DNA of 64,000 bases from an uncultured Acidimicrobiales bacterium (lineage in GTDB: Bacteria > Actinomycetota > Acidimicrobiia > Acidimicrobiales > JANYDT01), in NCBI GenBank assembly GCA_963763885.1, contig CAVXQD010000007.1:495919-559918 (forward strand), in the 5' to 3' direction. The notes beneath the pieces are model-generated. The model searched no databases. It was not told the origin of the DNA and saw only the letters and a list, made by a program, of their open reading frames with translations. This document shows positions 3,098 through 44,300 of this stretch, piece after piece. How positions within the stretch are numbered: the stretch's first letter is position 1; each line of letters opens with the position of its first letter. The position numbers were made by a program, and so were the translations under genes.

Positions 3098-3738
3098 GCA
3101 CCGCACCGCCCATGCCGCCCTCCATACCTCCGTCCACGCTCCACTGGCAAAATACCGACGTCGAAGTACACAAGGTCGTCGTCGGCCCCTACGACAACAA
3201 CGTGTTTACGGTCCGTTGCCGCGCCACCGGCGAAGCCATGCTCATCGATGCCGCCAACGAGCACGAGCAACTGCTGGCGTTGTGTCAGGACCTCGGGGTT
3301 CGTCAGGTAGTTGAGACGCACGGGCACTGGGACCACATCCAAGCGGTGACGCAAATCCGCGATGCCGGGTATCGGGTGTCGGTCACGGCTGCCGATGCGG
3401 GCATGCTCCCTAGCTACGACCTGATCCTGGAAGACGACGAGGTGCTTGAGGTCGGGCGGCTTCGCATCCGCACCATCCTCACGCCGGGCCACACCCGAGG
3501 TTCCATCTGCTTCCAGGTCGAAGGTACGCCGTTGTTGTTCAGCGGCGACACGCTGTTCCCCGGCGGTCCCGGCGCAACGAAGTTCGAGGGCAGCGACTTC
3601 CCCACCATCATCACGTCCATCGAGTCGCGGCTCTTCACGTTGCCGCCCGAGTTCATGGTGCTCCCCGGCCACGGCGTCGACACCACCATCGGAACGGAAC
3701 GCCCTCACCTCCAAGAGTGGGTCGACCGCGGCTGGTAA
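3094..3738 (+). CDS. MBL-fold metallo-hydrolase (glyoxalase II-like)
   Basis: ORF 3037..3738. Contains the THGHWDH metal motif and later PGHTRGS and GDTLFPGG. ATGA overlap with the upstream stop at 3094-3097. Confidence 0.85.
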   Translation: MSTAPPMPPSIPPSTLHWQNTDVEVHKVVVGPYDNNVFTVRCRATGEAMLIDAANEHEQLLALCQDLGVRQVVETHGHWDHIQAVTQIRDAGYRVSVTAADAGMLPSYDLILEDDEVLEVGRLRIRTILTPGHTRGSICFQVEGTPLLFSGDTLFPGGPGATKFEGSDFPTIITSIESRLFTLPPEFMVLPGHGVDTTIGTERPHLQEWVDRGW

Positions 3739-3807
3739 GTAACGAGCCCGTTCGGCCTGGACCGCTGCAGCCGGGCGGGTCCCAGTTCTGGCGTGAAGGA
3801 TGCTTGG

Positions 3808-3853
3808 GCAAACATGATGCAGCTGCATCGCGCTCCCGTTCCGTGGCGCTCCG
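3808..3853. repeat. IR-A (outer left), palindrome-core repeat
   Basis: Sequence gcaaacatGATGCAGCTGCATCgcgctcccgttccgtggcgctccg. The reverse complement of 6001-6047 matches 31 of the first 32 nt, then matches partially. Confidence 0.75.
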
Positions 3854-3984
3854 GTTCCATCGTGTCTCCGGTTGCATCGGCCCGGTCGATAGACCATTCG
3901 GCGGGAAGAACAGGCTCACACTTGGGTCGGGCCGTGCCGGATTGGCTATTCCACGTCCAGCGGGCTTGCACCGATTCAGCGGCA

Positions 3985-4045
3985 AAGGTTGTGCGGGCAA
4001 ACACGATGCAGCTGAATCGTGTTTGCAACTCACCGGGGACGGGCC
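3985..4045. repeat. IR-B (inner left), palindrome-core repeat
   Basis: Contains gcaaacacgatgcagctgaatcgtgtttgc (30-nt near-palindrome). It is about 79% identical (48/61 by hand alignment) to the reverse complement of 5861-5924. Confidence 0.7.
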
Positions 4046-4301
4046 AGTCCTCCACCGGCTTGCTCAACCAACGCACTAGACAGAAATTAAATCAGGAAAG
4101 TGATGAACTGAAAACCCGTCTCGCGCACTTGCGAAATTGGGGAAGCCCTCGCCGCAGACCTAACCAGGGCTGCGCGCCTGATCGCGGAGAGTCCAAAGAG
4201 CGAAGCGGACGGGGTTGAGTGCCTGGTTATACGTTCTCACCGTAAAGCCTCAGCACAATAAGGTGCACTGACGGAGCTTGTGGCGGGTCGGGCTCTTCGG
4301 G

Positions 4302-5789
4302 TCAGCCCTGTTGACAGTCGGGTTTGATCTCGGGTTTGATCTCGGGTTTGATCTCGCTGGGACGGGTCTTGTTGTGGAGGTGGCCCTGGACGGCAAGGTG
4401 GACGTCGAACGGCTCGCCGTAGCCGGTTGGTTCGATTGGTCCGGTGCGGGCGGCGGCGGTGTGGTTTGTGAGGTTGCTGGGATTGCCGGAACTGGGCCGA
4501 GAGTTGGTGAGGCCGGGCTTGGTGAATTCCAGCGCTCCGTTGGGGTTGCCAGCGATGACCCATTTGTTGCGATGGACGGCGTGGTGATGCATCGAGCACA
4601 GCAGGATGAGGTTCTGGGTCGTGGTCGTTCCGCCTCTGGAATGTTCATGGATGTGGTGCGCATGGAGCGAACCTCTGGCGCTACATCCTGGAAACCGGCA
4701 CGCTTGGTCGCGTTGGTTCAGCGCACGCCGTTGTGACGTGCTGGGCGCTCGTGGGTGTAACCGCTTATACGTGATTCGTTCATCGGCACTCTCACGAGTT
4801 ATGCCTCCTGCCCTGCGAGCGTGATGCGTTGCGATGATCACATCCGCGTCAGCCGCCAAGCGGTCGGCTTTGGTTGGTGAGATTGGTGGACCGCTTTCGA
4901 GCTCGTCACCGTCGGGGTAACGATGGACGACAACGAGTGGCCGACACGATGCAGCTGCATCGTGTCTCGACGACTCGCCGCCTCCGGTCTCGGGCGACTG
5001 GCCCGGTTGGGCCACCTGCGACAGGGTGATGTGGCCGGCCTCGACAAGGGCCACCAATGCATCGGCCCGCAACTGGTTGAACGGCACTTCGACCGCGACG
5101 ACGTTTACAGACTGCTGATCCGAGTCGGCAGCCTTCGCCTGAGCGCGGGCTCGACTGATCTCACGTTGCATCTGAGTTTCGACTGCGCGGCGCAGGGCTG
5201 TTCCAGCTTCGGCACTCAGCCGGGCACGGACCAGTACCGACCCGTCTTCCTGAGTGATGATCATCAACTCTCGGCGTTCGTGCTGGCGAACCTCATCATC
5301 CACATCGGCTGGACGGGATGCGCGTTCGACCTCGGCAACGAACCGCTCCAACTGTGGTGCCGTTGCGTGCAGAGCCATTTCGACCAGTTCCGCTTCAGAT
5401 CGGGGGCACACCACCCGGCACACAGCCCGCACCCGCGAATAAGACAACCGCCCCTTCGCGAACGTGGCGGCAAGCAGCGGGTACGACTCCAACACTCGAG
5501 CTACGTGCACATACTGTCGGGCGGTTACCAACGACACCCCAACGTGGCCGGACAGCCAGTGAGCCATGGACTTGCATTCCCAGCTTGCCCAGACCTGGCG
5601 GCGGTCGTACTCGGCGATGAGCTGGAACCAGCGTGCTGTTCCCGCGGCGAGGTCTGCCGCCACTTGGCACAGCTCGGCTTCCAATCGCTCGTCTGGCAAC
5701 GCGGCCAACGCAGCCCGATCATGCACAGAAGGGCCAGTCGCTGTCGGAGGCAGAGTGGGAGACGGAAGAACGCTGGACAACGTTGACAT
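4302..5789 (-). CDS. HNH endonuclease with N-terminal DUF222 domain (REP13E12-type protein)
   Basis: ORF 4302..5903, start taken at MSTLSS (ATG 5789). Has the DUF222-like ...ARWFQLIAEYDRRQVW...SMAHWLS... and a C-terminal HNH region CRFPGC...HAHHIHEHSRGG...LILLCSMHHHAVH. Confidence 0.85.
   Translation of the reverse strand: MSTLSSVLPSPTLPPTATGPSVHDRAALAALPDERLEAELCQVAADLAAGTARWFQLIAEYDRRQVWASWECKSMAHWLSGHVGVSLVTARQYVHVARVLESYPLLAATFAKGRLSYSRVRAVCRVVCPRSEAELVEMALHATAPQLERFVAEVERASRPADVDDEVRQHERRELMIITQEDGSVLVRARLSAEAGTALRRAVETQMQREISRARAQAKAADSDQQSVNVVAVEVPFNQLRADALVALVEAGHITLSQVAQPGQSPETGGGESSRHDAAASCRPLVVVHRYPDGDELESGPPISPTKADRLAADADVIIATHHARRAGGITRESADERITYKRLHPRAPSTSQRRALNQRDQACRFPGCSARGSLHAHHIHEHSRGGTTTTQNLILLCSMHHHAVHRNKWVIAGNPNGALEFTKPGLTNSRPSSGNPSNLTNHTAAARTGPIEPTGYGEPFDVHLAVQGHLHNKTRPSEIKPEIKPEIKPDCQQG
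4319..4354. repeat. 12-bp tandem repeat x3 (cgggtttgatct)
   Basis: Perfect triple repeat at the 3' end of the HNH CDS. It encodes EIKPEIKPEIKP on the minus strand. Confidence 0.9.
4943..4966. repeat. 24-bp perfect palindrome GACACGATGCAGCTGCATCGTGTC inside the HNH CDS
   Basis: Same GATGCAGCTGCATC core as the four flanking repeats. It is read in frame as ...RHDAAASC... Confidence 0.9.
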
Positions 5790-5860
5790 GCACCAATATT
5801 GACAAAGGGGTATGACAAAAATCGGGCGAACGAAGAAGATCAGCAAGGATTTCTTTCGCT

Positions 5861-5924
5861 GGCCCGACCCCAGTGAAATGCAAACGCGATGCAGCTGCAT
5901 CACGTTTGTTCGAGCAACCTAAGG
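5861..5924. repeat. IR-B' (inner right)
   Basis: Sequence ggcccgaccccagtgaaatgcaaacgcgatgcagctgcatcacgtttgttcgagcaacctaagg; inverted copy of 3985-4045. Confidence 0.7.
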
Positions 5925-6000
5925 CTTGAACGCGGGCCGAAACATCCGCTGCCGGCCGATGAAACCGAGGGAAACGAAGCAACCCGAGAAACGACGCGAA

Positions 6001-6047
6001 CGGAGTCGCGATGAATCGGGAGCGCGATGCAGCTGCATCCTGTTTGC
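6001..6047. repeat. IR-A' (outer right)
   Basis: Sequence cggagtcgcgatgaatcgggagcgcgatgcagctgcatcctgtttgc; inverted copy of 3808-3853. Confidence 0.75.
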
Positions 6048-6111
6048 GGGAACAAGCTTCAAAACCGACCCGGGGACGCGCCTGACCCCACCCCGCCTTG
6101 GACGCGAAACA

Positions 6112-6128
6112 GCGGCCCGGAAGGCCGC
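6112..6128 (-). terminator. possible intrinsic terminator of whiB
   Basis: GCGGCC / GGCCGC 6-bp stem with a 5-nt loop, followed on the minus strand by TGTTTCG, about 36 nt after the whiB stop. The stem is short and the U-tract weak. Confidence 0.35.
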
Positions 6129-6166
6129 CGCTTCAACTGTGATTCAGTTCTAGCAAGAAGGCAGGG

Positions 6167-6526
6167 TCAGCTGGCTTCGGCCATCTGGTCTTGCTGGTCG
6201 GCTTGCTGCTGCTGATCGCCTTGCGCCGTTGCAGGGCGACGGCGGGCGGCCCGACGGTTCTCTGCGCGCCACAGGCGACGCAGGACTCGGCGCTCGTCTT
6301 CGGTGGTTCCGCCCCACACGCCGTACTCCTGGTTGGTGGTAACGGCGAACTCGAGGCATTGGCCTTTGGCTGGGCATCCTGCGCAGTGCGACTTGGCAAG
6401 GGTGATTTGTTCAACCGCTTGGCCAGTGACACCAATCGGGAAAAAGATCTCCGGATTCAAGTCCCGGCAGACGGCGTCTACGCGCCAATCCAGATCGTTC
6501 CAGCGCTCGTGAAGCATTGTGAGCAT
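6167..6526 (-). CDS. whiB: WhiB-family transcriptional regulator (Wbl) with Gln/Asp-rich C-terminal tail
   Basis: Four Cys in the Wbl pattern (C...CAGCPAKGQC), the G[V]WGG turn (EYGVWGGTTEDERR) and a basic tail. Confidence 0.9.
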   Translation of the reverse strand: MLTMLHERWNDLDWRVDAVCRDLNPEIFFPIGVTGQAVEQITLAKSHCAGCPAKGQCLEFAVTTNQEYGVWGGTTEDERRVLRRLWRAENRRAARRRPATAQGDQQQQADQQDQMAEAS

Positions 6527-6870
6527 CAGTGTTCTCCCTGCCGGTCTCCGGCGTGTGTGGTGACGTTGATGGTGGTGGTGTTGCTGGTGATGCGGTCCTG
6601 ATGTTGTTGCGCTCGCGAGAGATTAAAAACCGACTGCCATGTGTGGCCGTAGTCACTTTCTTTCCCCGAATTTCTTCACACACGGTGATGAACTTTCAGG
6701 TACTCGAAATTTCACTTTCGGCCCGATCAGTACTGTACCGAGCGGTCAAGTTATCTGGGAAGAGGCTCCTTCGAGAATCTCTCCAACAGATGAAGACTAT
6801 CGGGATGACAGATCCAATGAGACAGGGTTCACACCGGTAGATAGCTCAACGACCACGGAACGTGGGAGGT

Positions 6871-28986: not shown

Positions 28987-31642
28987 ATGCTGATTCCACG
29001 GACGCGTCAGACAACCGCCGTTTCCAGAACCCTGGCCAGATTGGCCGCCACGGCGGTGCTCGTCGGCGGGCTGACACTCGCGGTCACAACCGGCACCCCT
29101 TCGGCTTCTGCTGCAGACGCCCTGGTTTACGGGGATTCCCTGTCGCCCACCTGGCAGAACTGGTCATGGGGCGCAACCGCAACAGACACATCGTCCCCCG
29201 TCGCCAGCGGAACCCGTGCCTTGGCCGTCAACGTGGCGGCTCCATGGGGAGCGCTCAGCTTGAGAACCGTGCCTGCAGTGGAGTTCGGCACCGGCACCAT
29301 CAGCCTTGCGCTGCACGGCGGTGCAAGCGGCGCATCGGTCTCGTTGTTCACCAGCCAGGACGACGGCAACGCAACTCCGTCCACGTCCGTCACGCTCACC
29401 GCTCCAGCCAACACGTGGGTGCGGCACACGGTCACAACGGCTCAGCTCGGTGCCGCACCACGGATTGGGCGCCTCAACCTGCAGTCACCCTCGGGCGCAT
29501 CGTTTTCCGTTGACGACCTCCGTGTCGACGCTGGGGCCATCCCTCCGTCCACGTTGCCGCCTACCACCCAGCCGCCGGTCACGTTCGAGGGCGCAATCAA
29601 CATCAACGCGGCTTCGACGATTGGAACAGTCCCCAATCGAATGCGCGGCACAAACCTCGGGTTCTATTCGGGCGGATGGTCGTTCGCCGACACAACGTTG
29701 CGTCGTCGGAGCCAAGGGGTATCCGCACTCACTCGTTACCCCGGCACGCAGGACAGCCAGCGGTGGGGCTGGGCCAGTTGCCAGATGGGCACCAACCTGC
29801 CCGCAGCCCAGGGATGCACCACGCCCAACTTCACGTGGACGGCACGTCCTTCTGACTTCATTGGGTTCATGCAGTCCGTGGGCGGAGAAGCAGTTGTCAC
29901 GCTCAACGCCAACGCAACAGCCAAAGAGAATGCCGCGTTCGTTGCGTTCATGAACGGCTCTGTTTCAGACACGCGTGTGATCGGCGTTGACCAGCGCGGG
30001 GCCGACTGGCGCACCGTTGGGTACTGGGCTCAACAGCGCGCCAACGCGGGATACCCAAGCCCCTTGGGCGTCACGTTGTGGGAGTTCGGAAACGAAACCT
30101 ACGGCGGCCTTCCAGGCGGCAACAAGTGTGTGGAATACGGGTGGGAAGTCACCTGGACGTGTAAGGCCACCGAGTTCCTGGACGGCGTGGGTTCTGGTGC
30201 AACCCGCCAGGACGGGTACCGCGCAACCAAGGCTGCGATGAAGGCAATCGATGCGTCCATCCAGGTTGGGTTTCCTGCGGAACGCAAGCTCGATGACTAC
30301 AACAGCTGGACCCGCGAGGCGATCGCAAACCATCGCAACGAGATCGACTTCTTCATCGTCCACCCGTACTTCACGTGGATCCCTCCAGCAGACACGCCCG
30401 CCGGTAACGCCGAGATTCTCAGCCTCCCGCAACGACACTGGAGCGAAATCTCCACGGCGTTCCGCAGCGGCTACACGCAGTACGGCAGCCGACAAGTCCC
30501 GCTGCTGATCAGCGAGTTCAATCTCACCCCGGGACGCGAGAACGACCCAGCAACGCGCATGAACGGGATCGGGAACGCCATCATGATGACTGACTCCGTC
30601 GGTGTGATGTCTCGCGATTCGCTGTACATGGGTGCAAACGCGTTTGAGCTGTACGGCGCTGCGTCGCCAAACGGGACGTACTTCAGCATGATGCGCAACG
30701 ACGGTGCGTTCACCCGCACCGCGCTGTACTGGGGCTGGACGATGTGGTCCCGGTTCGGTTCCACACTGCTTGATTCCTCCAGCACGTTCGATGCCGGGTC
30801 CACGTTGTCGGTCTATGCGGGCCGACGCGATGCGAACACGCTCACGTTGATGGTGCTGAACAAGTCGTCCCGATCCATAAGTTCACAGATCAACGTCAAT
30901 GGCGTCACCGGGATTCGATCCATTGTTTCCGACATTGCTGCCGGGACGTCAATGGCCGACCCCAACGTGTTGTTCAACGGGAGAGCCAACCCGTCCGACG
31001 ACCTGTCCGACGCTCCGGGTAACACAAGCGACGCAAACGGGCAACGCACCTTCGTCCGGGCATTCGCCCCATGGTCCATGACGGTGATGCGCATGACCAT
31101 TGGCGGTCCAACAGGCACCACGACAACGGTTGCACCCACAACCGTTGCACCCACAACGGTTGCACCCACAACCGTTGCACCAACCACGATCGGGCCCACC
31201 ACCACAAGGCCGCCAACCACCTCGACCGACCACGATTGCACCAACAACCGTCACCCCGACGACTGTTGCACCCACCACCGTCACGCCCACGACGATCGCG
31301 CCCACGACCACGCCTCCTGGTGGAGCGTCGTGCCGCGCGTCGTACACAACCCAGTGGCAGGGGGCAGCTTCGTTCGGCGGAGAGGGCACCATCACCAACA
31401 CCAGCGCCGTTGCCATCAACGGGTGGACGCTGCTGTTCACGTTCCCCGGAACCCAAAGCATCTACCAAAGCTGGGGCACCACCCACTCCCAATCGGGCCA
31501 ACAGGTAACCCTGCGCGACGCGGGTTGGAACGCCACTATCGCCCCGGGCCAAACCGTCACCTACGGCTACGCCGCAACCTTCACCGGCTCCAACCCACCG
31601 GTGTCGGCGTGGCGTTTGAACGGCGTGACCTGCAGCCCCTAA
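28987..31642 (+). pseudogene. secreted clan GH-A-like glycoside hydrolase with Pro/Thr linker and C-terminal CBM2; frame break in the linker near 31225
   Basis: Signal peptide ...TGTPSASAADA; WEFGNETYG (acid/base-like NE) and LLISEFN (nucleophile-like E). The CBM2 (CRASYTTQWQGAASFGGEGTITN...GWTLLFTF...WRLNGVTCSP*) is read only in the frame of ORF 31100..31642. Confidence 0.7.
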
Positions 31643-31773
31643 ACCGAGTCGCCGGTCTCTAGGTCCGGCGGTCCCGACCCGCGTTTCGTTGAGTGGTTGT
31701 CTCCTGCATGGCCGGGCGTCTCCTGCAGCCTGCTGAGCACGCCCAAACCTGCTCAGTACGCCCAGACACGGGT

Positions 31774-31812
31774 AGACGACACTGTTCCATGGTCAGGTGA
31801 ACAGTGTTGTCT
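31774..31812 (+). other. 14-bp-arm hairpin (one mismatch) in the 290-bp spacer upstream of the L,D-transpeptidase gene
   Basis: agacgacactgttc / gaacagtgttgtct with an 11-nt loop. It could be the terminator of the GH gene or leader structure. Confidence 0.3.
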
Positions 31813-31931
31813 GACACCTCCGGGCTGAAGTGCCCAACTTGTCCGACCACTTGAGGGATAATTGACAAGCGTTCGGGTGGTTGCCCGCTTTCGCCACCTC
31901 CCCCCGCACCTCAAGGATCCAAGGACCAACG

Positions 31932-33161
31932 ATGCCAGCGCACCGCTCCCGGCTATCACAAGGGCGGCGTGCCCGCATCTTCAGCCCTCTCTCTGTTGGC
32001 GCCATTTCATTGGCAGCACTCGCCGCTGCAACGTTCGCGCCCGGCGTTGCCACGGCAGTTGGCCCTACCCTGCCGCCAAAGGGTGCGGCGCCGGTCACAA
32101 CCAAGCCCTCCTCGGCCAACACAACAGTGAAGTCCGCTGCTGCCAAGGCACCCGCAAAATCGACGTCGAAGTCCTCTACCAAGACGGTGTCGAAAGCTGC
32201 GACGGCGAAGAAGTCGACGTCGAAGTCCAGCTCAGTTTCGGGGCTGGGGATGGGTTCTCGTGGCACGGCGGTTCAGGGGTTGCAAGAGCGCCTCATGGAG
32301 CTGAAGTACGACATCACCGACGCTGAGGGCCAGTTCGGCGATCAGACGTTCCATGCGGTGATGGCCTTCCAGAAGGCAAACGGGCTGGGCCGCACCGGTC
32401 GAGTCGGTAGCCAAATGCTGGCTGCGCTCGAGAATGCAACAGACCCCCAGCCGATGATGCCAACGGGAGGAGCCAAGCGTGTCGAGGTCGACCTCAAGCG
32501 CCAGATCCTCATGATTTGGGACAACAACGAGCTCTACCGAGTCATCTCCATCTCTAGTGGGAACAACAAAGATTTCTGCTCGTTCGACCCTGAGACCGAA
32601 GAGACCAGCTGCGACAAGGCAATCACTCCCACCGGGTCCTATCGGATCCAGCGCCGCTGGGTCGGCTGGCGCGAGTCACGGCTCGGCGAGATGTACAACC
32701 CGCTGTACTTCACGGGCGGTTTCGCAATCCACGGCTCGCTCAGCGTCCCAGGGACACCTGCTTCGCACGGCTGCTTGCGCGTACCGATGGTCACGGCCGA
32801 ATGGCTGCCTGGTGTCCTGGAAAACGGCGTCCCCATCTACGTGTTTGGCGCAAAGGACACGGACAAGAAACCAACCGCGTTGAAGTCGACAGCCGCCACC
32901 ACCCGGCCATCGGGCACCACGGTTCCGGGCGCAGCAACCATCCCCGGTGCCAGCACCGTCCCAGGTGCAAGCACGGTCCCAGGACAAACCGTTCCTGCAA
33001 CGGCCGGGCCAACCACCTCGACGTCCACCACAACCACCATCGTGCGGTTGCTCGATGCTGGCGGCAACACGTTGCCACCGACAAATCCCACTGCAACCGC
33101 TGCCCCGACGACAGCGGGACCAACCACAACGCCGCCGTCATCGCTTCTGCCAATCGGCTGA
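31932..33161 (+). CDS. L,D-transpeptidase with PG-binding domain and Pro/Thr-rich tail
   Basis: PG_binding_1-like GSRGTAVQGLQERLMELKY...FGDQTFHAVMAFQKANGL; YkuD core ...GGFAIHGS...PASHGCLRVP. Confidence 0.85.
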   Translation: MPAHRSRLSQGRRARIFSPLSVGAISLAALAAATFAPGVATAVGPTLPPKGAAPVTTKPSSANTTVKSAAAKAPAKSTSKSSTKTVSKAATAKKSTSKSSSVSGLGMGSRGTAVQGLQERLMELKYDITDAEGQFGDQTFHAVMAFQKANGLGRTGRVGSQMLAALENATDPQPMMPTGGAKRVEVDLKRQILMIWDNNELYRVISISSGNNKDFCSFDPETEETSCDKAITPTGSYRIQRRWVGWRESRLGEMYNPLYFTGGFAIHGSLSVPGTPASHGCLRVPMVTAEWLPGVLENGVPIYVFGAKDTDKKPTALKSTAATTRPSGTTVPGAATIPGASTVPGASTVPGQTVPATAGPTTSTSTTTTIVRLLDAGGNTLPPTNPTATAAPTTAGPTTTPPSSLLPIG

Positions 33162-33197
33162 TCGCTCCGACCAACTGACTAACGCTGTCTTCGCCGA

Positions 33198-33461
33198 TCA
33201 GCGCGCTCGAAGGAACGCAAGCACTGCCGACACTCGGCGGTTGGACTCCGGATCTTCGCCCAACCCAAGCTTGGAGAAGATCGCCGATGAATGGCTTTGC
33301 ACGGTCTTCGTGCTGATGTACAAATGGGCAGCAATTGCCTTGTCGGTGCGCCCTTCAGCCATCAGCTGCAGCACTGCGCACTCACGTGCTGAAAGCGTGC
33401 CAATTTGGCCAGCGCTCCCGAAGCTGTTCGCCTTTTGGGCAAGTGCATTGGGTCGGTCGAA
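33198..33461 (-). pseudogene. orphan LuxR/GerE-type HTH fragment (C-terminal part of a NarL-type regulator)
   Basis: Own translation: ...GTLSARECAVLQLMAEGRTDKAIAAHLYISTKTVQSHSSAIFSKLGLGEDPESNRRVSAVLAFLRAR*. The frame is closed by TAG at 33462-33464 with no start codon or receiver domain upstream. Absent from the ORF track. Confidence 0.6.
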
Positions 33462-33770
33462 CTATCGCGGCCGGTGTCGAGCGGCCCAAGACTGTCCCTG
33501 TGCGTTTGATGGCTCTGTCGCTTGGCGGACGGTTCGAGAACGACGCAGAACCCGTTTCAAGCGGGGTCATGATCGCTGTGGAGGCCGCGTTCGTCGTCGT
33601 GTGCGCAGCACGTGAGGCCTGGCGTCCAGACCCACAGCCGCTAGACGTCATCGCTGGACGGTTAGTGGTGAGGTCTAGGGATGAACAGGCGACCTGCCAC
33701 GGTAAGTGACCGTTTGCCGAGGTCTAACAATTTTCTTGACATTCACCTTTAGAAGCGCGTCGATCTAGAA

Positions 33771-35228
33771 ATGAAACGCTTAATCGTCGGTAGTTTCGTT
33801 TGCGTCGGCCTCGGGTTCGCCACGCTCTCTCCGGTTTCCGCAGCAAAGCTCTCAGCCAGTGACTATCCCGCTAACGAGATGGCCCCGTTGTATCCATTCA
33901 CTGACAAACCAGCACCTGTAGTGAAATATAGCGTTACACCGAAGAATTTTTCCGCTGAGCCGACACCGCGACCAAAAGAGCCAACTCCGACCGATCCCTC
34001 TCTTTTGAGTGATGATCAACTTCGACAGATCATCGATTTAACCGGTTTTTCGGAAACGGATGCCAGGCTTTCGTGGAAACTCAGCGGTGTACTTCTGGAT
34101 TTACAAGAACAGTTCAAAGAGAACCCAGCCTTTGGTGCGGCATGGAACGGAATTACGGGAACATTCTCACTGAACGTTCGCCTAGCGAAAGAAGACGAGC
34201 AAGTAGAACAGGCTATCAAGGCAAAAGAAAAGGAGTTGGGCATTCCTATCAACCGACACTACGGTGGCATGTCCTACAAAGATGAGGATCATTTTTTACG
34301 AGTGTACCTTGCTCAATTTTCGAAAGTTCGGTTCAAAACGGACACTGACTACGAAACTGGTCTTGTCACTATAACGACACTCGACCCGACCATGACGGAG
34401 AGAGTCAACGCTCAGAAAAACCCGCACGTGAAAGTTGTCAACGAGGATCCTGCACCGACGAAGCCTCTTTCTGGTTCGTCTTCGGCTCCCGGTGCCTCGC
34501 TTTGGCAAGACACAAGTTACGGAGGTGCTTGGAACGGACAGTCTATGTATCCCGGAGTTGGTGCCCCTCCGAATCAGTATGTCGGCTGGGGATGGAGTTG
34601 TAGCGGGGGAGCGTCGTTTCGGACACCTTGGAATCCTGTTCAAAAGAGTCTAGTAACCGCGGCTCACTGTTTGGATCTGCCTGGTTCAAACGGATACAAC
34701 GATCAATACAGCGCAATAGCCACTCAGTCCACCATCTACAATGGTTTCTATAGCCAAAGATGGACCGTTTGTGGTGACTACGGAGATGTTCAGTTTCACG
34801 ATTACTACCAGGCATATCCATATGTGAGCAATCTTCTTGCCGTAGGGAGTGCTGCGAGTCCTACCTACTACTTTGCGAAGGAAGTAGCAGGGGGTGTTAA
34901 CCCGACCATGTGGACCTACAACAGTGGCGCAGCTTCAAGAGTTGTGAATGGAAATGTTCCTCTCACCCTTTTTGATCGTTTCGGGTGGTTTCCAGGCGGT
35001 GGTGGCGCGTCAGACTGCAACCAGTCGATGTATGGTCCAATCACGGTTGGCACTCCCGCAATTGAGGGTGACAGCGGCGGAATACTGATCAATAAGTATC
35101 TCAACGATTGGTATTTGGCCGGGATTCTGCACGCCGTCAATGGATATGAGACTCAATCAACTTTCATTTCTTGGATTTTCGGTCAACAAAACAAGAGTTG
35201 GTGGTGTACAACAGCAAATCCTTGTTAG
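33771..35228 (+). CDS. secreted chymotrypsin-fold (S1, alpha-lytic-protease-like) serine protease with long propeptide
   Basis: Signal peptide MKRLIVGSFVCVGLGFATLSPVSA; catalytic motifs VTAAHC and EGDSGG; low-GC codon usage. Confidence 0.85.
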   Translation: MKRLIVGSFVCVGLGFATLSPVSAAKLSASDYPANEMAPLYPFTDKPAPVVKYSVTPKNFSAEPTPRPKEPTPTDPSLLSDDQLRQIIDLTGFSETDARLSWKLSGVLLDLQEQFKENPAFGAAWNGITGTFSLNVRLAKEDEQVEQAIKAKEKELGIPINRHYGGMSYKDEDHFLRVYLAQFSKVRFKTDTDYETGLVTITTLDPTMTERVNAQKNPHVKVVNEDPAPTKPLSGSSSAPGASLWQDTSYGGAWNGQSMYPGVGAPPNQYVGWGWSCSGGASFRTPWNPVQKSLVTAAHCLDLPGSNGYNDQYSAIATQSTIYNGFYSQRWTVCGDYGDVQFHDYYQAYPYVSNLLAVGSAASPTYYFAKEVAGGVNPTMWTYNSGAASRVVNGNVPLTLFDRFGWFPGGGGASDCNQSMYGPITVGTPAIEGDSGGILINKYLNDWYLAGILHAVNGYETQSTFISWIFGQQNKSWWCTTANPC

Positions 35229-35246
35229 CAAAACACATCTGGGCCT

Positions 35247-35465
35247 TCATTTGGTACTTGCAACGACATTCCCTGAGGGCCATAAAATTCGTGAGCCGTC
35301 ACACTCGATGGGCTCACGGGTCGGCAAATAGATCGGGCAAGGTGGCAAAGTACTGGGCGAGGTAAAGTCCTCTTGGATGGTGGGTCGCGTCGCCTCACCG
35401 GCCGACAAGAAAAGGCCCACCCCTAGAAACGTCACTAAGAGCGAACTCAGAAGCCACTTTCTCAT
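35247..35465 (-). CDS. hypothetical small secreted protein with a single Cys-bounded loop
   Basis: MRKWLLSSLLVTFLGVGLFLSAG signal-like N-terminus, then ...PPCPIYLPTREPIECDG. Convergent with the protease gene. Coding status uncertain. Confidence 0.3.
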   Translation of the reverse strand: MRKWLLSSLLVTFLGVGLFLSAGEATRPTIQEDFTSPSTLPPCPIYLPTREPIECDGSRILWPSGNVVASTK

Positions 35466-35817
35466 ACTCTTAGAGCTATCGACACCTTTCTTGGAAAGCT
35501 TGAACACCTGCAAGACCGCTCCGAGAACGCAGGTCCCCCGTATCGCTCGAACGAAGATCTAAATCAACTTGCTCGGGACCACCGCCCCGAGAGTCATTTG
35601 TTAGCGGCTTTATCCAGCCGTTTCGGCTCGATGATTTTGACACCCTTCAATCCAGATCGAAAGTCGTCAGGTGGCGCAGATGGGTCGCTGCCAGACGCCA
35701 GCACCCCGATATTGGCCCTTACTTCGCGCGAGGTATCACCGCATATTCTCGATTGCCAAGCGTCTCAAAAGCGAACGATTCTGAGACACTCCAACGTTCG
35801 CTCAGTTCCCGGCAAAA

Positions 35818-36240
35818 TCAGTGCGCTTTCGTTCGCTGACGGAAAGCGAGGACGTATGCCGCATACACAAATGCTCGGTCGGACCGTCGAATGAGACGTC
35901 CTGACGGATAGGCGAGAACAAGGTGTGAGAACGCAGGCATGCTCAACCCGTCGGAGAAGAGTCCAACCGTGACCAAGAACCGACAAGGGGGTCCGAGATC
36001 CTCCAGCAATCCCGCCGCCAGGAGTACGAGGACCAGTTTCCACATCCGGCTATCGGGACGACGCCGCCGCAGGGTGACAGCCACCCCGAAGACCGCAAGG
36101 ACTGAACCGAGCTGCGCGAACTCACGCCCAGGAGGACGGTCGACGTCCAGCGGGTACGCCCAAAACTGCCACCAGACAGACCCAACCATAGAGTCGGGAA
36201 TCCACCTCCAAAGGGGTTTGCGAGGTGGAATGCCCCACAT
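35818..36240 (-). pseudogene. N-terminal membrane fragment, possibly of a sensor histidine kinase
   Basis: 140 aa with TM segments and ...FSHLVLAYPSGRLIRRSDRAFVYAAYV..., which resembles the N-terminal sensor region of actinobacterial NarL-partner kinases. No HisKA/ATPase part follows. Confidence 0.3.
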
Positions 36241-36264
36241 TTGGGGGCAACCTCTGTCGCCGCC

Positions 36265-37137
36265 TCAGCCGGGCAGGGAGTCGGCGTTGCCGCCGCAGAT
36301 CACGACGCCTACCGTGGCAGTTGCTGGCGGCTGCCACGCACCGGTCATCAACGCGGCAAGCGCCGTTGCGCCGCCTGGCTCGGCAACAACGCGCATGTCG
36401 TTCCAGAGCCACCGTTGCGCTGCAACGATGGCGTCGTCGTCAACAAGGGTGCTGGCCGCGACCCGAGTCCGCAGAATCTCCCACGGCACTTCGCCTAATG
36501 AAGGCGGGCCAAGGCTGGTGCGAGCAATACCTTCGGCGGGAGTGGGCACCACATGACCAGCGCGCTGCGCTTCGGCTAGCGACGGACACCCGATTGGTTC
36601 AACCGGCACCACTCGGCCTTTTTTCTCAAGAGCGAGGGCCACACCCGCTGGAAAACCCCCACCGCCAACGGCACATAACCAATGAGTCACCTGTGGCGCG
36701 TCTTGGAGCAGTTCAAGCCCAAGCGTTGCCTGGCCCTCGATGGTGCGTTCCTGGTTATAGGGGTGCAGCAGTGGCCAGCCCCGCTCTGCCACCAGTTGCT
36801 CGGCCACCGCAAACGCTTCAGCGGGAACATCGCCGTGCAGAATCACTTCGGCCCCGGTACGACGCATTGCCTCGACCTTGGTGGCCGCTGCCGAAAGCGG
36901 AACAACAATGGTGGCCCGACGCCTAAGCCGCTGGGCAGCCCACGCAACCGCAAGGCCGTGGTTGCCACCGGAACACGCCACTACTTCTGGGGCCCCTGAG
37001 ACAAGCAACGAGTTCACCGCGCCCCGGACCTTGAACGATCCGGTGATCTGCAACGACTCCAGCTTGAATGTCACTGCGACACTTGCTGCGGAGCCGATGA
37101 CAGGCACCTCGGCAACCATGATTGGAGTGCGCCGCAC
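36265..37137 (-). CDS. PLP-dependent threonine/serine dehydratase family enzyme (N-terminus apparently continues in another frame to about 37195)
   Basis: ...FKLESLQITGSFKVRGA (PLP Lys), ...GGNHG..., GGGG loop CAVGGGGF. The upstream frame encodes VITAESIAAAAQRVE, which joins naturally to PYVRRTPIMV. Confidence 0.8.
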   Translation of the reverse strand: MRRTPIMVAEVPVIGSAASVAVTFKLESLQITGSFKVRGAVNSLLVSGAPEVVACSGGNHGLAVAWAAQRLRRRATIVVPLSAAATKVEAMRRTGAEVILHGDVPAEAFAVAEQLVAERGWPLLHPYNQERTIEGQATLGLELLQDAPQVTHWLCAVGGGGFPAGVALALEKKGRVVPVEPIGCPSLAEAQRAGHVVPTPAEGIARTSLGPPSLGEVPWEILRTRVAASTLVDDDAIVAAQRWLWNDMRVVAEPGGATALAALMTGAWQPPATATVGVVICGGNADSLPG

Positions 37138-37217
37138 ATACGGCTTCGACCCGCTGCGCTGCGGCTGCGATGGACTCAGCGGTGATCACGAAGTCAGCAG
37201 CCCGTCGGGAGTTCTGA

Positions 37218-38000
37218 TCAGAAAGGGATATCGGCGAATGGGTCTGCGCCGCGTGCAGCAGCAGCTGCCTCGGGTGGCAGATACTGCTCGTAGCCGGTGC
37301 GTTCCAGTTCTTTGGCCAGCTCTGGCCCACCAGACTTGACGATGGTGCCCTTCACAAAAACGTGCACAACGTCTGGCGTGAGTTCGTCCAACAGGCGCTG
37401 GTAATGCGTGATGGCCAACACGCCAAGGCCGTCTTCCTGCGACGCTTGCAGTACACGTCGGCTGACGGCGCGCAGTGCGTCGACGTCGAGACCGGAATCG
37501 ATTTCGTCGAGGATGGCAAAGCGCGGTTTGAGCACGCCCAGCTGCACCGTTTCGTTGCGCTTCTTCTCGCCGCCGGACAGGCCGACGTTCAGCGCTCGGT
37601 CCAAGAAGCGGTGATCGAAGCCGATACGGTCTGCCTCGGCCTCCATCAAGGCAACGACATCAGCGTCGGCTCGGCCGGCGGCTCGCATTGACGCCTGGAG
37701 CATTTCGGAAAGGACGACGCCGGGAACTTCGGTTGGATACTGCAGGCCGAGGAACAAGCCGGCATGCGCCCTCTTCCAGGTGGGAAGCGCAAGCACATCG
37801 ACCCCGTCCAAGGTGACCGTGCCGGCGGTGGCTTCATAACCGGGACGACCCATCAACACATGCGACAACGTGGACTTGCCGGAACCGTTGGGGCCCATCA
37901 GCGCGTGCACTTCGCCAGAGCGAATGGTGAGGCTGAACCCTTTGAGGATCTCTGTACCGACAGGACCGCCGGTGAGACCGGAGATGACAAGTTCGCTCAT
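37218..38000 (-). CDS. sufC: Fe-S cluster assembly ATPase SufC (copy 2)
   Basis: GPNGSGKST, SGGEKKR, ILDEIDSGLD, ITHY. ATGA overlap with the sufD-Rieske stop. Confidence 0.85.
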   Translation of the reverse strand: MSELVISGLTGGPVGTEILKGFSLTIRSGEVHALMGPNGSGKSTLSHVLMGRPGYEATAGTVTLDGVDVLALPTWKRAHAGLFLGLQYPTEVPGVVLSEMLQASMRAAGRADADVVALMEAEADRIGFDHRFLDRALNVGLSGGEKKRNETVQLGVLKPRFAILDEIDSGLDVDALRAVSRRVLQASQEDGLGVLAITHYQRLLDELTPDVVHVFVKGTIVKSGGPELAKELERTGYEQYLPPEAAAAARGADPFADIPF

Positions 38001-39694
38001 GGCTGTTGGTCCGACCCTGCTGCGTCTGGGGTGTAGGTAGTGCTTTGTGAGAACTCGATCAACACGTCGTCGCCGGCGAGTGTCACCACGTAAACCTGGA
38101 CCGGCTGTGTTGCGGGCAAGGACTGAGGTTCACCGGAGACCAACGAGAACGTGGTGCCGTGTTTCCAGCATTCGATCTCGCATTCGTCGTCCCAAATGGT
38201 GCCTTCCGACAACGAGACCTCGGCGTGCGTACAGGTGTCGTCGATGACGTAGACGTCGTCTTGGATGCGGACGACGGCGAGCGGCAAACCGTTGACCACC
38301 ACACGCGTGGCAGAAGACGGGGCAAGCGCGGAGAACTGTGCGACCTTGACCTGCGTCATGGCGGCTACTCCTGCTGCGCTTCCCGCAGTGGACCCAGCCG
38401 CGTGTGAACGGCCAAACTTCTCGACGAACACGCCGGTCAGCGCCTCGGCCACACCTGGCACCGGCGATCGGTCAAGGACGTCAGCGAAGAAGCCCGTGAC
38501 GATGAGACGCTCTGCCTCTTCTGGTGGCACACCGCGCAGTTCGAGGTAGTAGCGGTGGTCGTGGTCAACCGGACCGACCGCTGAAGCGTGGCTGCACTTG
38601 ACCTCGTTGTTTTCGATCTCGAGGTTTGGCACCGATTCAACTGAAGCCGTGGGCGAGAGCAACAGATTGCGGTTGGCCTGGTTGGCAACAGCGTTGCGAG
38701 CATCGACGCCGATCTTGATGAGGCCCGAGTACACGGACTGCGAGTGGTCCTGCACGGCACCTTTGAACAACAGCTCGCTGGTGGTGCGAGGGCCGATGTG
38801 ATGCTGCAGCGTACGAAAGTCGTGCATCTGATGCCCAGCACCGAAGTACACCGCGAGCAGTTCGTTGAAGCCGCCCTGTTCGGTAACAACAGCGTCGGTT
38901 CGTACGCGCGCATAGCTTCCGCCCAACGCAACCGACATTGTTCGTAACGTTGCGTCTCGGCCGGTGTTGCATTGCTGGTGCGCAACCTGGAAGCACTGGT
39001 CGCCTAGTTCCTGCACGCTGACGAAGCGCAGCGTGGCGCCTGTACCAACAGAGAGTTGCGTGATGGGCGTGAAGAGCGACCCAGCCCCGTCGCCGACGAT
39101 TCGTTCGACGATAGAGACCGATGCGTTTTCGCCAACCTGTACGACAAGCGACGACGGAATGTACGCGCGCTGACTAGCCACCTGGTTGATGACCTGCACG
39201 ACGCCAGGGATGGTGGACCCACGAGGAACGGCTATGACCAACGCATCTGTTGCGACTGCAAGGGCCAGATCGACGAACAGATCTCCACCGTTCACGCGCG
39301 GGTCCGTGACCGCAGTGTCGTCTTTGGCTGCACTGGTGATGGAGAGCCCAGCGGCAGAGGCCGCCGACGTGACCGAAATGGAGTGCACAAACCCGTCGAT
39401 GAGATGAACCAACGCAGCGGGTTCACCGATGGGATGTGGGGTATGCGACACGCCAGGACCAGCCGGTTCAGTCGTGGCGCCGGGCGATGCGATGACGAGC
39501 CCGTCAACTGGGATCTTTGCGATGCGGGAGTACCGCCAGATTTCCGCTTCGGCGGTGGGGCGGACGAGCCCTGCAAGCGCAGCACCGGGAACGAGGTCCG
39601 CAAGCTTGAGGCCAAGACGGTTTGAAGCCTGCTCACGCAAGCTTGAAAGGGGCATTGCGACGGGGGTCGCGGAGGTTGCGTCGGTGGAGAGCAC
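37997..39694 (-). CDS. sufD: SufD fused in frame to a Rieske [2Fe-2S] ferredoxin domain
   Basis: The N-terminal roughly 430 aa are SufD-like (beta-helix region ...NRNLLLS...SVPNLEIENNEVKCSHASAVG...YYLELRGV). The C-terminal 120 aa carry the Rieske motifs CTHAEVSLSEG and CWKHGTTF. No stop lies between them. An internal ATG at 38359 is preceded by AGGAG. Confidence 0.8.
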   Translation of the reverse strand: MLSTDATSATPVAMPLSSLREQASNRLGLKLADLVPGAALAGLVRPTAEAEIWRYSRIAKIPVDGLVIASPGATTEPAGPGVSHTPHPIGEPAALVHLIDGFVHSISVTSAASAAGLSITSAAKDDTAVTDPRVNGGDLFVDLALAVATDALVIAVPRGSTIPGVVQVINQVASQRAYIPSSLVVQVGENASVSIVERIVGDGAGSLFTPITQLSVGTGATLRFVSVQELGDQCFQVAHQQCNTGRDATLRTMSVALGGSYARVRTDAVVTEQGGFNELLAVYFGAGHQMHDFRTLQHHIGPRTTSELLFKGAVQDHSQSVYSGLIKIGVDARNAVANQANRNLLLSPTASVESVPNLEIENNEVKCSHASAVGPVDHDHRYYLELRGVPPEEAERLIVTGFFADVLDRSPVPGVAEALTGVFVEKFGRSHAAGSTAGSAAGVAAMTQVKVAQFSALAPSSATRVVVNGLPLAVVRIQDDVYVIDDTCTHAEVSLSEGTIWDDECEIECWKHGTTFSLVSGEPQSLPATQPVQVYVVTLAGDDVLIEFSQSTTYTPDAAGSDQQP

Positions 39695-39923
39695 GGGGAC
39701 ACGAATCTAGTTGACCTTGCCCGGTTCCCAATCACGGATCATGACGCGGAGAAGCGATGACCACCACTCTGGGTGTTCGCCATCCCCAATTTCTCCCGAT
39801 TTTCACCGGACACAGAGGACTCGAATCTCAAGCACGTGCGTTTCAGTTCCGATACCGAAACCATGACGCAGTCCTCAGCCGATGGCACGCCCCAATTCGG
39901 CACGCCCCAGGTCAGCCCTCTGA

Positions 39924-41180
<1,257 letters not shown>

Positions 41181-41350: not shown

Positions 41351-44300
41351 TCACCAGGTGATCTGGTGCGTGGCCGTGTTGTTGTAGACGTCCAACTTGG
41401 TAGCCAGGTCGATCTTGACCTGTCGGGTGGCGGAGTTCAGCGCAGTAACGGTTTGACTTACCACCTGCGCTGTGGTCAACGGATACGCACCGGCGCCACC
41501 CGCTGGCAACAGCGTTGCCGAGTAGCAGGCGTTGAGATACGCGGCGGTTGCTGCCCGAACCAGGATTTCGTTTGCACCTTCAACGCCCGGTCCACCTTTC
41601 AGGCCAAGGGCCTGCAGCAACGTCAGGGAGCTGATCGCTGCACCGCTGCGGGTCTTGACGGTGCCCGCAAGGTTCGTGAATATCGTACTGACGGGAGTGT
41701 TTGGAGTGAGCGGTCCGCATGCTCCGAGGTATTTGGGTTGCCACGCGTTGTTGGAGTTTCCAGTGGTGTGGTTCTTCCAGAAGCCAGGCGTGAACCCGAG
41801 GTAACCCGGTGCATAGCTTGCCGTGTCGGTATCCGATGGGCTTGGGAGACACATTGTTGCTGCGCATCCAATCGCCGTTGCGGTGTTGACGTAACTTGTG
41901 CCGCCGTTAAAGACCGCTGGCACGGGACCCGTCCAGCAGGTGACCGCTGCGTTGACTGCCACGGCGCCAACGCTGATTCCTGTTCCACTAACAGTGGACG
42001 GAACCGAACAGGTAGTCGGTGTGGTCGCAAGGGAAAACCGCGAGTCGGTCAGGGTGACCGGATCGAGTGCGACCTTGCCGTTGTTCGTGATCACGAACTG
42101 GAAGCAGAGCAAACTGCCAACCAGCACCGGCGACAAGCTATCGAAGTACCCAGTGGTTGGGCAGGTCGCACCCGTTGCGTAACCCACGGACTTCACAACG
42201 TCGATGGATGCGTACCGGTTGACGATGGTGCACGTAACCGTCTCGCCCTTGGCAACCGTCACTGTTGTGGCGGTCTTGGTGGCGGCACCGGTACAAGCCC
42301 ACGTTGTGCCGTTGACGTAGTTGAGGACGCTGCCGGTTTCACTCAGCGTGTAGGTACCGGTGAGCACTGACTTGTTGGTCACTGCAGCGGCACCGCTGGT
42401 TCCGCTGACGCCAGCTGTTGGGCCGGCAGCAAAGAGTGTCCACGACGATGCAAGCGCCGTTCCACCGTCAACCTGTTTCACCAGCGTCAAAGTGCCGGTG
42501 TCTCGGGTATTGGTAATGGTGCAGACGACGGTCTGACCCTTCGCAACGACCACCGTATCGAGGTCTCCAGCCGGCATCGTGCCGCCTGTACAAACCCACG
42601 CAGTGCCGTTGGTGTAACCCGCAACGGTTCCAGATTCGGACAGGTCGTAAGTGCCGGTATTAACTGTGGTTTGGGTATCCGACGGCACGTTTGTCACGGG
42701 AGTAGGGCCAGCGGCGGAAAGCGGCCACGAGGTTGCTGGCTCGTTACCACCGCTGACCGACTTCACCAACTTGAGGGTGCCCGTATCACGAGTGTTAGTA
42801 ATCGTACATACGACTTCTTTGCCCTTGGCGACGGCGACCGAGTCACCGTCAATCATGGCGATTGGAGCGCCATCAACCGTGCAGACCCATGTGGTCCCGT
42901 TGGTGTAACCGGCAACCGGTCCAGATTCGGACAAGTCGTAATTGCCCGTCAGCACCGCAGTACTTGTACCGGACTTCACGTTGACCACTGGGGTTGGCCC
43001 TGCGGCCGAAAGGTCCCACGCTGTTGGAGCCGCGGTGCCACCGCTGACGCTCTTGACAAGCTTCAGGCTGCCGGAGTCACGAGAGTTTGTAATCGTGCAG
43101 GTGTAGCTCTCACCCTTACTGATCACGAGGGTATTGAAACCAACTGGCACCACGTCAATATCGTTGATCCCGTCGTCGCAAATCCACGTGTCTCCGTTGG
43201 TGTATCCAGCAACGGTGCCGGACTCGGACAGCACGTACGAGCCGGTGAGCACAGTGGTAGTGGTTCCGGTCTCCACGTTGGTGATCGGTGTGGGACCAGC
43301 GGCCGAAAGTTTCCACTCGGTTGGCAGAGCAGCACCGCCAACCACCCGCTTCACCAGTTTCAAGGTGCCGGTGTCTCGGGTGTTGGTGATGGTGCAGGTG
43401 ACGTTCTGTCCCTTAGCAACAACCACCGAATCGCCATCAGTCATGGTGGCGTCAACGCCAGGGGGAGCCCCGACCTTGCAGACCCACGTGGTTCCGTTGG
43501 TGTATCCGACAACGCCAGCTTTGGCGGCTTCGGACAAGTCGTAGGTACCGGTCTTGACGGTGGTGGTTGTACCTGTGGGCACGTTCGTCACCGCAGTCGG
43601 GCCAGCTGCGGACAGGTTCCACGAGGTTGCTGCCTCGGTTCCGCCGCTGACGGACTTGACCAGCGTGAGGCTGCCGGTGTCACGGGTGTTGGTAATCGTG
43701 CATACGACCGTTGCATTTTCGGCAACGGCAACGGTGTCCGCGTCACCGGCCGGCATTACGCCGCCGGTGCACACCCAGGCGGTTCCGTTGGTGTAACCCG
43801 GAACTGACGCCAGACTCTGAGAGGTCATAGCTGCCTGTTGGGACAAGCGGAACTTGCACCGCCTGCCCCGCTCAAGACGGTATTGGCTGCGGTGGAAGTA
43901 CCCGTTGTGGAATCGCCAGTTGCGGTGAGCGTCCACAACTTTGGATCTGCCACTCCGTCGCTGACTGCCTTGACCAAGGTCAACGTGCCCGTCTTCCGGG
44001 TGTTGGTGATGGTGCAGGTGATGTTTTCAGTGCTTGCAAGGGTTACCGACGTCAGGTCTGTGCCCTTACCTGGACAATTCCACGTGGTTCCGTTGGTGTA
44101 GGTGCCCACGGTGCCGTTCTCGGAAAGCGAGTAGGTGCCGGTCGGCACGACTTGCGATGTCACCGCTGGGGTGCCGCTGACGCCTGTGATGGACACCGCC
44201 GGGGTTCCTGGGCCTGTCGCGGTGAGCGGCCACTGGGTGACTGTTCCGTTGCCACCGGCCACGTTCTTGACCAATGTCAGCGTGGCGGTGTTGCGGGTGT

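Follow-up and report, generated by a model that had tools for sequence, protein, structure and literature searches.

Alpha-lytic protease and the streptogrisins (MEROPS subfamily S1E) are bacterial chymotrypsin-fold proteases with a large pro region that serves in folding. In alpha-lytic protease, this region is the folding catalyst. The enzyme is synthesised in pre-pro form, its mature part has 198 amino acids (aa), and its secretion needs correct folding (PMC2289522). The present analysis concerns a 64,000-nucleotide stretch of DNA, hereafter the window, from an uncultured Acidimicrobiales bacterium (GenBank assembly GCA_963763885.1, contig CAVXQD010000007.1, positions 495,919 to 559,918). 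In the window, a gene for a serine protease of similar layout is enclosed by two fragments that resemble a HisKA_3 kinase and a NarL regulator, the partners of a two-component system (TCS). The best explanation for this arrangement, with a probability of roughly three in four, is that foreign DNA of 2.36 kb carrying the protease gene replaced the middle of a kinase/regulator operon located between the host genes PALP and YkuD.

The two fragments lie on the minus strand at 33198-33461 and 35818-36240. The first is an 87-codon open stretch composed of a linker and a C-terminal helix-turn-helix (HTH), and its final 60 residues match the GerE/LuxR HTH (Pfam E 4e-16). The fragment is preceded by a stop in the same frame (33462-33464), and its first possible start, GTG 33374, sits inside the HTH. 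No receiver domain accompanies it, as Pfam did not detect Response_reg in any of the frames of 33198-33790. The preliminary description, made from the sequence alone, had called it an orphan LuxR-type HTH without start or receiver domain, and this stands. The second fragment is an open reading frame (ORF) of 140 aa that has no Pfam match, and a word-indexed search of 5.8 billion proteins recovered it alone.

Within the genome collection, the nearest protein to the HTH fragment is a 218-aa NarL-type regulator at locus L006, with 57% identity over 74 residues (its 142-215). This regulator carries Response_reg and GerE by Pfam, and the best relatives overall are likewise NarL-type regulators of about 220 aa. 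Upstream of the regulator and overlapping its start, L006 encodes a 587-aa kinase with HisKA_3 and HATPase_c (Pfam). Residues 110-134 of that kinase and residues 105-129 of the 140-aa ORF are 60% identical (AHAALAYPSGRLRGRPERGFVAFAY against SHLVLAYPSGRLIRRSDRAFVYAAY), and the motif HLVLAYPSGRL..R.DRAFVYAAY is common to the 140-aa ORF and the kinases of L006 and L024.

An HTH-domain alignment was scanned over the metagenome collection and yielded 80 loci with HTH relatives. The 140-aa ORF matched six of these by tblastn (L006, L017, L019, L021, L022, and L024), each time in the gene directly upstream of the regulator, and the L017 alignment spans residues 6-140. Relatives of the 140-aa ORF thus came up solely in the flanks of regulator homologues. 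The upstream genes encode 570-595 aa and are aligned through their first ~150 residues; HisKA_3 and HATPase_c were confirmed for L006. Both ORFs could be resolved in five loci, and there the end of the kinase gene runs into the start of the ~220-aa regulator.

Hidden Markov models (HMMs) were built from five kinases and four regulators of intact pairs. Positions 62-156 of the kinase HMM match 36096-35815 (E 6e-11), positions 145-215 of the regulator HMM match 33413-33201 (E 2.5e-26), and the two models found nothing further in the six-frame translation of 33100-36300. The kinase HMM gave the 140-aa ORF 33.9 bits, and none of 500 shuffled versions scored more than 6.7 bits. The strand of the remnants and their order, kinase then regulator, are those of intact pairs. 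The suggestion that the 140-aa ORF is the N-terminus of a sensor kinase is thus upheld, and the fragments do not come from unrelated families, because both align to adjacent genes of one TCS. Judged by their sequences, they are the two ends of one HisKA_3 kinase/NarL regulator system, with the 140-aa ORF as the N-terminal membrane/sensor part of a sensor histidine kinase.

The gap between the fragments (33462-35817) measures 2,356 bp, in agreement with the ~2.36 kb first reported, and the corresponding parts are 1.69-1.74 kb apart in intact loci. No trace of HisKA_3, HATPase_c, or Response_reg was detected in any frame of the gap using Pfam at E up to 10, tblastn of the intact pair, and the HMMs; the region 35200-35830 also gave no kinase-domain Pfam signal in any frame. 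The absence of domain remnants therefore shows that some 1.7 kb was physically replaced by some 2.36 kb. The alternative, a full-length system that decayed through frameshifts, was rejected, since the missing domains were not found by Pfam, tblastn, or the HMMs.

Stop codons stand directly at both homology breaks, 33462-33464 and 35818-35820. The kinase homology ends within a few codons of the stop of the 140-aa ORF. The regulator homology ends within ~10 bases of the stop at 33462-33464, since several tblastn alignments extend as far as residue 4 in the fragment of 87 aa. Because the limits of homology fall near the stops, the junction coordinates proposed earlier are essentially correct. Both stubs are free of internal stops and the GC content of the core has not drifted to the host value, which suggests that the replacement was fairly recent. 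The signalling system is dead because the kinase stub has no phospho-acceptor or ATPase domain and the regulator stub has neither receiver domain nor start codon. No second kinase/regulator pair of this family was found in the remaining window, so there is no paralogous source there.

The composition of the intervening DNA departs strongly from that of the host. The mean GC content of the 64-kb window is 61.3%. In 300-nt windows, GC falls to 46-54% between ~33,700 and ~35,800 compared to 60-68% on either side. In 1-kb windows, the minimum of the island is 49.3%, against 61.6 ± 1.7% (standard deviation, SD) and a floor of 56.7% elsewhere. The segment 33,700-35,800 is thus the GC low point of the 64 kb, about 7 SD under the mean of the remainder. 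The left edge of the dip is sharp, from 63% at 33,600-33,699 to 44% at 33,700-33,799, and the right edge is gradual. The low-GC island that had been noticed from a few lines of sequence is therefore borne out by the sliding-window calculation.

The sole long ORF within the dip is the protease gene at 33771-35228 on the plus strand. Its GC content is 49.7%, and its GC at third codon positions (GC3) is 0.488, the smallest value among all ORFs of at least 250 aa. The neighbours YkuD, PALP, SufC, and SufD have GC3 values of 0.66-0.72, and ordinary genes 0.65-0.76. The kinase and regulator remnants are host-like (GC 59-61%, GC3 ~0.65) compared to the 49% core. GC3 of the protease gene gives the same answer as GC, and the protease DNA is compositionally foreign. 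GC and GC3 outside the host range, together with absence of the segment from the relatives examined (L001-L005), indicate horizontal acquisition.

The protease ORF is intact and encodes a pre-pro serine protease of 485 aa. It contains VTAAHC with His299 (34665-34667), Asp339 (34785-34787), and EGDSGG with Ser435 (35073-35075). The N-terminus, read directly from the sequence, is MKRLIVGSFVCVGLGFATLSPVSA followed by AK; it has an MKR start, a hydrophobic core, and a putative cut between VSA and AK, and a Sec signal peptide is predicted at approximately aa 1-24. The signal is followed by a Pro/Thr-rich linker, a pro-domain (~aa 75-235), and a predicted S1-fold catalytic domain (~aa 270-485).

Relatives of this protease are few. 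In the word-indexed search of 5.8 billion proteins the protease, too, found itself alone, and it took an exhaustive HMMER search of 1.84 billion representative proteins to reveal ten relatives, of which the nearest is 46% identical. An alignment of 10 family sequences shows T296, A297, H299, C300, D339, D434, S435, G436, and G437 to be invariant, along with six Cys. The protease fails the thresholds of the curated Pfam Trypsin and Trypsin_2 models, and two of its relatives stay below the Pfam Trypsin cut-off of 20.6 bits with 18.7 and 19.2 bits. Searched against the PDB, the family profile reached plasma kallikrein (4.7e-08), SFase (2sfa; 1.1e-07), and streptogrisin B (1.5e-07), and 266 PDB chains in all at E up to 1, compared to E 0.35 only for the single sequence. 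Its sequence motifs and this profile match identify the protein as an S1 serine protease with the His/Asp/Ser triad in the customary order and motifs.

The protease was modelled with AlphaFold2 (AF2) on the 10-sequence alignment; the single-sequence AF2 model had a predicted local distance difference test score (pLDDT) of only 31 and was uninformative. The pro-domain model has pLDDT 79-95 across most of aa 110-220. Foldseek matched it to the alpha-lytic protease pro region (2pro/3pro/4pro) with a probability of 0.87-0.99 and a target template modelling (TM) score of 0.44-0.59, at E of only 0.02-0.07. At the sequence level, the pro-domain matched no PDB chain and no Pfam family. For the catalytic region (pLDDT 35-65), Foldseek found chymotrypsin-fold norovirus 3C-like proteases, at E of only ~0.02 (probability 0.87-0.89). 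The protein had been presented as a complete secreted alpha-lytic-type protease. The intact ORF, TAAHC, and GDSGG hold, and so do the architecture and the predicted fold; membership at the sequence level does not. The term "alpha-lytic-type" thus fits the architecture and the modelled fold rather than a demonstrated family membership.

The host genes on both sides place the segment in a convergent spacer. The left flank is a YkuD-type L,D-transpeptidase (31881-33161, plus strand; Pfam PG_binding_1 and YkuD), and the right flank is PALP, a pyridoxal phosphate (PLP)-dependent serine/threonine dehydratase-like protein (36265-37137, minus strand; Pfam PALP E 7e-63). PALP finds its best matches in Ilumatobacter/Ilumatobacteraceae-type metagenome-assembled genomes, and the host is an Ilumatobacter-like actinobacterium. 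It is 84% and 81% identical to PALP of the closest relatives, L001 and L002, and 84% and 82% identical to the proteins P0003 and P0004, with a conserved C-terminal NADSLP. In L001 and L002 the order is SufD-Rieske-SufC-PALP followed by a convergent YkuD, and the PALP-YkuD gap is 44-66 bp. The synteny and ~75% DNA similarity to these loci end at ~33,055 on the YkuD side and return at 36,280 on the PALP side. The window flanks keep normal 3' ends (PALP NADSLPG-stop and, conserved in relatives, YkuD LPIG-stop). Since the two genes abut in relatives and their 3' ends are intact here, 33162-36264 (3.1 kb) is extra DNA in the convergent spacer. The kinase/regulator pair is itself accessory, because the nearest relatives have no TCS at the locus.

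A more distant relative (L004, 10919-14731, and L005, 10919-14742), whose PALP is 74% identical, holds a different ~4-kb insert at the identical PALP/YkuD junction. Its genes are a GH130 glycoside hydrolase, a GT1-family glycosyltransferase, and a hypothetical gene that is divided between two ORFs in L005. The site is therefore variable in the lineage, and accessory genes seem to land at the PALP/YkuD junction repeatedly.

The same comparison leaves some room for a different course of events, in which the protease DNA broke up the TCS while it was still in a donor genome and the whole 3.1 kb (33162-36264) then arrived as one piece. The nearest relatives are without the entire 3.1 kb and not merely the low-GC core, and the junction has accepted another ~4-kb insert in L004 and L005. 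In addition, the PALP stop lies 24 bp upstream of the start of the kinase remnant, which leaves no space for a promoter of its own. However, the stubs are host-like (59-61% GC, GC3 ~0.65) around a 49% core, which speaks for two layers that differ in age or origin, although stubs from a donor with host-like GC would give the same picture; moreover, no mobile-element machinery to move such a composite was found. We regard this arrival in one piece as a real but distinctly less probable alternative to replacement within an operon already resident between PALP and YkuD.

Several observations weigh against the replacement of the operon middle by foreign protease DNA. An intact kinase/regulator pair at the PALP/YkuD locus was sought in relatives, as the preliminary description had proposed, and none was present in any relative examined (L001-L005); in L001 and L002, PALP and YkuD are adjacent. 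The first ~240 bp of the replacing DNA (33462-33699) are host-like with ~62% GC. Short direct repeats had been anticipated at 33462 and 35817, but none was found at the junctions, and only 10-13-nt chance matches occurred elsewhere. The region 30000-40000 contains no tRNA or tmRNA. Six-frame Pfam analysis of the non-protease island DNA revealed no domain, and neither an integrase nor a transposase remnant was found. The junctions are marked by no insertion sequence (IS) ends and no donor sequence. The protease has no match in Pfam (E up to 0.1) or NCBIfam (E up to 1), and its AF2 catalytic domain is all-beta but has low confidence (pLDDT only 35-65). An AT-rich region with TTGACA had been reported upstream of the protease. 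The hexamer is indeed present at 33736-33741, but a sigma-70-like consensus scan of 33100-36400 found no promoter and no -10 partner for it, which leaves an isolated hexamer. No obvious ribosome-binding site was seen for the protease. Because neither promoter nor ribosome-binding site was identified, expression of the protease is only putative. Finally, at least one frameshift nearby in the assembly (in PALP) makes its base-level accuracy uncertain.

The frameshift and related irregularities also bear on the idea of an assembly artefact, in which a low-GC fragment of another organism of the metagenome was misjoined. The source is one 2.23-Mb contig in a single record, indel-type anomalies occur nearby (the PALP frameshift and a SufD-Rieske fusion), and one sample series supplied both the closest relative of the protease and a relative of the host. 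However, host sequence borders the foreign piece on either side of a single contig. The two junctions interrupt the two genes of one operon and leave co-linear stubs, a pattern that a biological replacement predicts and that is hard to obtain by misassembly, and two further family members are low-GC in a high-GC context on independent contigs. Given these stubs on either side, we consider misassembly very improbable. An old resident protease of odd composition flanked by chance or unrelated ORFs is even less probable: other family members are also below their flank GC, so that low GC might be a family property, and the 140-aa ORF has no Pfam match, but the low GC extends to GC3 (0.49), on which amino-acid content has little influence, the segment is missing from all relatives examined (L001-L005), and the fragments match the kinase and regulator HMMs, with the 140-aa ORF far above shuffled controls.

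Other members of the protease family are consistent with mobility of the gene. The GC contrast was judged in the three members with enough flanking sequence, namely the window, L012, and L095. The protease GC/GC3 is 49.7%/0.49 in the window (neighbours ~62%/~0.70), 53.9%/0.58 in L012 (neighbours 63.7%/0.81), and 55.7%/0.61 in L095 (neighbours 64.6%/0.81). Beside the protease, L012 has an IS3-type HTH_Tnp_1 ORF and two short ORFs (5851-6667), and L095 has two ORFs that are pieces of one ISL3 DDE transposase (3321-4627). The three contexts share the protease gene alone, and no conserved partner gene was found, as the downstream genes in L012, L013, and L014 are unrelated to one another and to the window. 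Low GC in all three contexts and IS fragments in two of them therefore fit a horizontally moving gene. The segment in the window contains no Rfam family, and neither its DNA nor its proteins matched plasmid or phage collections.

Horizontal acquisition with replacement of the kinase C-terminus and the regulator N-terminus, as originally proposed, is thus supported by the composition, the co-linear remnants, the missing middle, and the absence in relatives. In this scenario, an accessory operon would have occupied the minus strand between the convergent PALP (minus) and YkuD (plus) genes. It would have encoded a multi-pass-membrane HisKA_3 kinase of ~590 aa and then an overlapping NarL/LuxR-type regulator of ~220 aa. 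Illegitimate recombination may have removed ~1.7 kb, between residue ~150 of the kinase and residue ~130 of the regulator. This part would have given way to 2.36 kb of foreign DNA (33462-35817), with the protease as the one recognisable gene. Illegitimate recombination rather than site-specific integration is suggested because integrase, tRNA, and repeats were not found.

The protease would be exported via Sec and, by analogy with alpha-lytic protease, might fold with the help of its pro-domain. It would then be released by autoprocessing, and its predicted extracellular activity would depend on His299/Asp339/Ser435. A likely role of such an enzyme would be protein scavenging or attack on other cells.

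The remaining DNA of the replacing segment holds little that could be recognised. The left part (33462-33770) consists of the host-like stretch up to 33699 and an AT-rich stretch (33700-33770) upstream of the protease that includes TTGACA. It had no Pfam match in six frames, no Rfam match, and no match to the kinase or regulator HMM. The right part (35229-35817; ~47-60% GC) contained no recognised gene remnant except an 88-aa ORF. It gave no Pfam match in six frames and no homology to the loci of protease relatives or to the remaining window. On its plus strand are two weak terminator-like hairpins (35572-35591 and 35616-35628), at or below chance expectation.

The small ORF convergent with the protease, mentioned in the preliminary description, is present in the ORF list at 35247-35513 on the minus strand. 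It encodes 88 aa from TTG or 72 aa from ATG at 35465, has two Cys, and shows one hydrophobic segment (aa 18-42) with a signal-peptide-like N-terminus. It has no Pfam or NCBIfam match, is absent as a called protein from a collection of 15 billion, and has no counterpart beside the protease relatives in L012, L013, and L014. It is a putative gene, and to call it an inhibitor or immunity factor for the protease would be pure speculation.

Several features of neighbouring genes were observed in addition. PALP carries a +1 frameshift ~20 codons into the gene (37137-37200, minus strand), with the indel near 37148-37152. Its conserved N-terminal peptide ITAESIAAAAQRVEAV is found in the other frame, upstream of GTG 37137, and the DNA alignment with L001 and L002 shows one extra base at ...CGGGTCGAAG.... 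The collection gene call for PALP is a shortened product of 284 aa. Either the mutation is genuine and has made PALP a pseudogene, or the assembly contains an indel error in a run of G.

SufD (SUFBD_core) and Rieske [2Fe-2S] are fused in a 565-aa ORF at 37997-39694 (minus strand). In L001, L002, and L004, SufD (~440 aa) and Rieske (110-122 aa) are separate, overlapping genes; the fused ORF is a real fusion or another indel. L001 (2507-5065) and L002 (2714-5272) encode SufB with an intein and a LAGLIDADG homing endonuclease (Intein_splicing, LAGLIDADG_3). The window has an ORF of similar size at 41351-43936 (minus strand), which is not SufB but a SpaA_2 (prealbumin-like fold) repeat protein, and synteny therefore differs beyond SufD.

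On the other side of the segment, an 891-aa ORF (28987-31662, plus strand) contains a Thr/Pro-rich repeat, TTVAPTTVAPTTVAP..., and then an odd His/Arg-rich tail. A second plus-strand ORF (31100-31642), which overlaps it in a different frame, instead closes with the stretch WQGAASFGGEGTITN.... The 891-aa ORF has no Pfam match, the syntenic genes of L002 and L004 carry CBM_2, and there may be a frameshift near 31,100.

The locus is a well-delimited case of a small, streamlined actinobacterial genome (one contig, 2.23 Mb) exchanging functions. One event would have destroyed a signalling module and delivered an extracellular enzyme, and both scars are readable, with breakpoints placed to ~10 bases. 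The mechanism would be ordinary gene gain plus gene loss at a variable intergenic site, and it leaves the current understanding unchallenged. For annotation, pseudogene stubs is the proper label both for the "hypothetical protein" of 140 aa and for the HTH fragment that was not called, and the 485-aa "hypothetical protein" is a serine protease. The rare, unmodelled protease family may be of interest for pro-region-assisted folding, as studied in the alpha-lytic protease group.

Compared to the HisKA_3/NarL systems of Actinobacteria and relatives (L006, L017, L021, and L024), the remnants share a homologous kinase N-terminus, a GerE HTH, and the tail ...DP..NRRV.AVLAFLR. Unlike functional systems of this type, they are without the dimerisation and histidine phosphotransfer (DHp) domain (HisKA_3), the ATPase domain, and the receiver domain. 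They are only 29-57% identical to the nearest intact systems, which come from organisms of 72-77% GC.

Classical genomic islands differ from the inserted segment, which has no tRNA, integrase, or flanking direct repeats and carries a single cargo gene. The segment is more like the islets that arise by illegitimate recombination: its GC and GC3 are atypical, it is absent in relatives, and it lies between convergent core genes at a site of variable cargo.

The protease shares its overall plan with Lysobacter enzymogenes alpha-lytic protease and the streptogrisins, namely a predicted signal peptide, a pro-domain (~160 aa), and a C-terminal catalytic domain. The His/Asp/Ser order, TAAHC and GDSGG, and a disulfide flanking the His loop are also alike. 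However, the catalytic region of the window protease is ~215-245 aa compared to ~190-200 aa in the alpha-lytic protease group. The protease has its own Cys pattern, in which the position four residues before Ser is not Cys and C-x5-C occurs at the C-terminus. A unique insert (aa 246-276) is rich in Gly and Trp. Against the family profile, mammalian kallikrein scores equal to the streptogrisins. Tentatively, the protease could represent an undescribed, sparse S1 branch, with ~10 members in 1.84 billion proteins, its own Cys pattern, no model in Pfam or NCBIfam, and a pro-domain linked by structure prediction alone, possibly travelling as a single-gene low-GC cargo among high-GC actinobacteria. 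The modest novelty of the locus lies in this protease family, a very small and unmodelled S1 branch whose modelled pro-domain resembles that of alpha-lytic protease.

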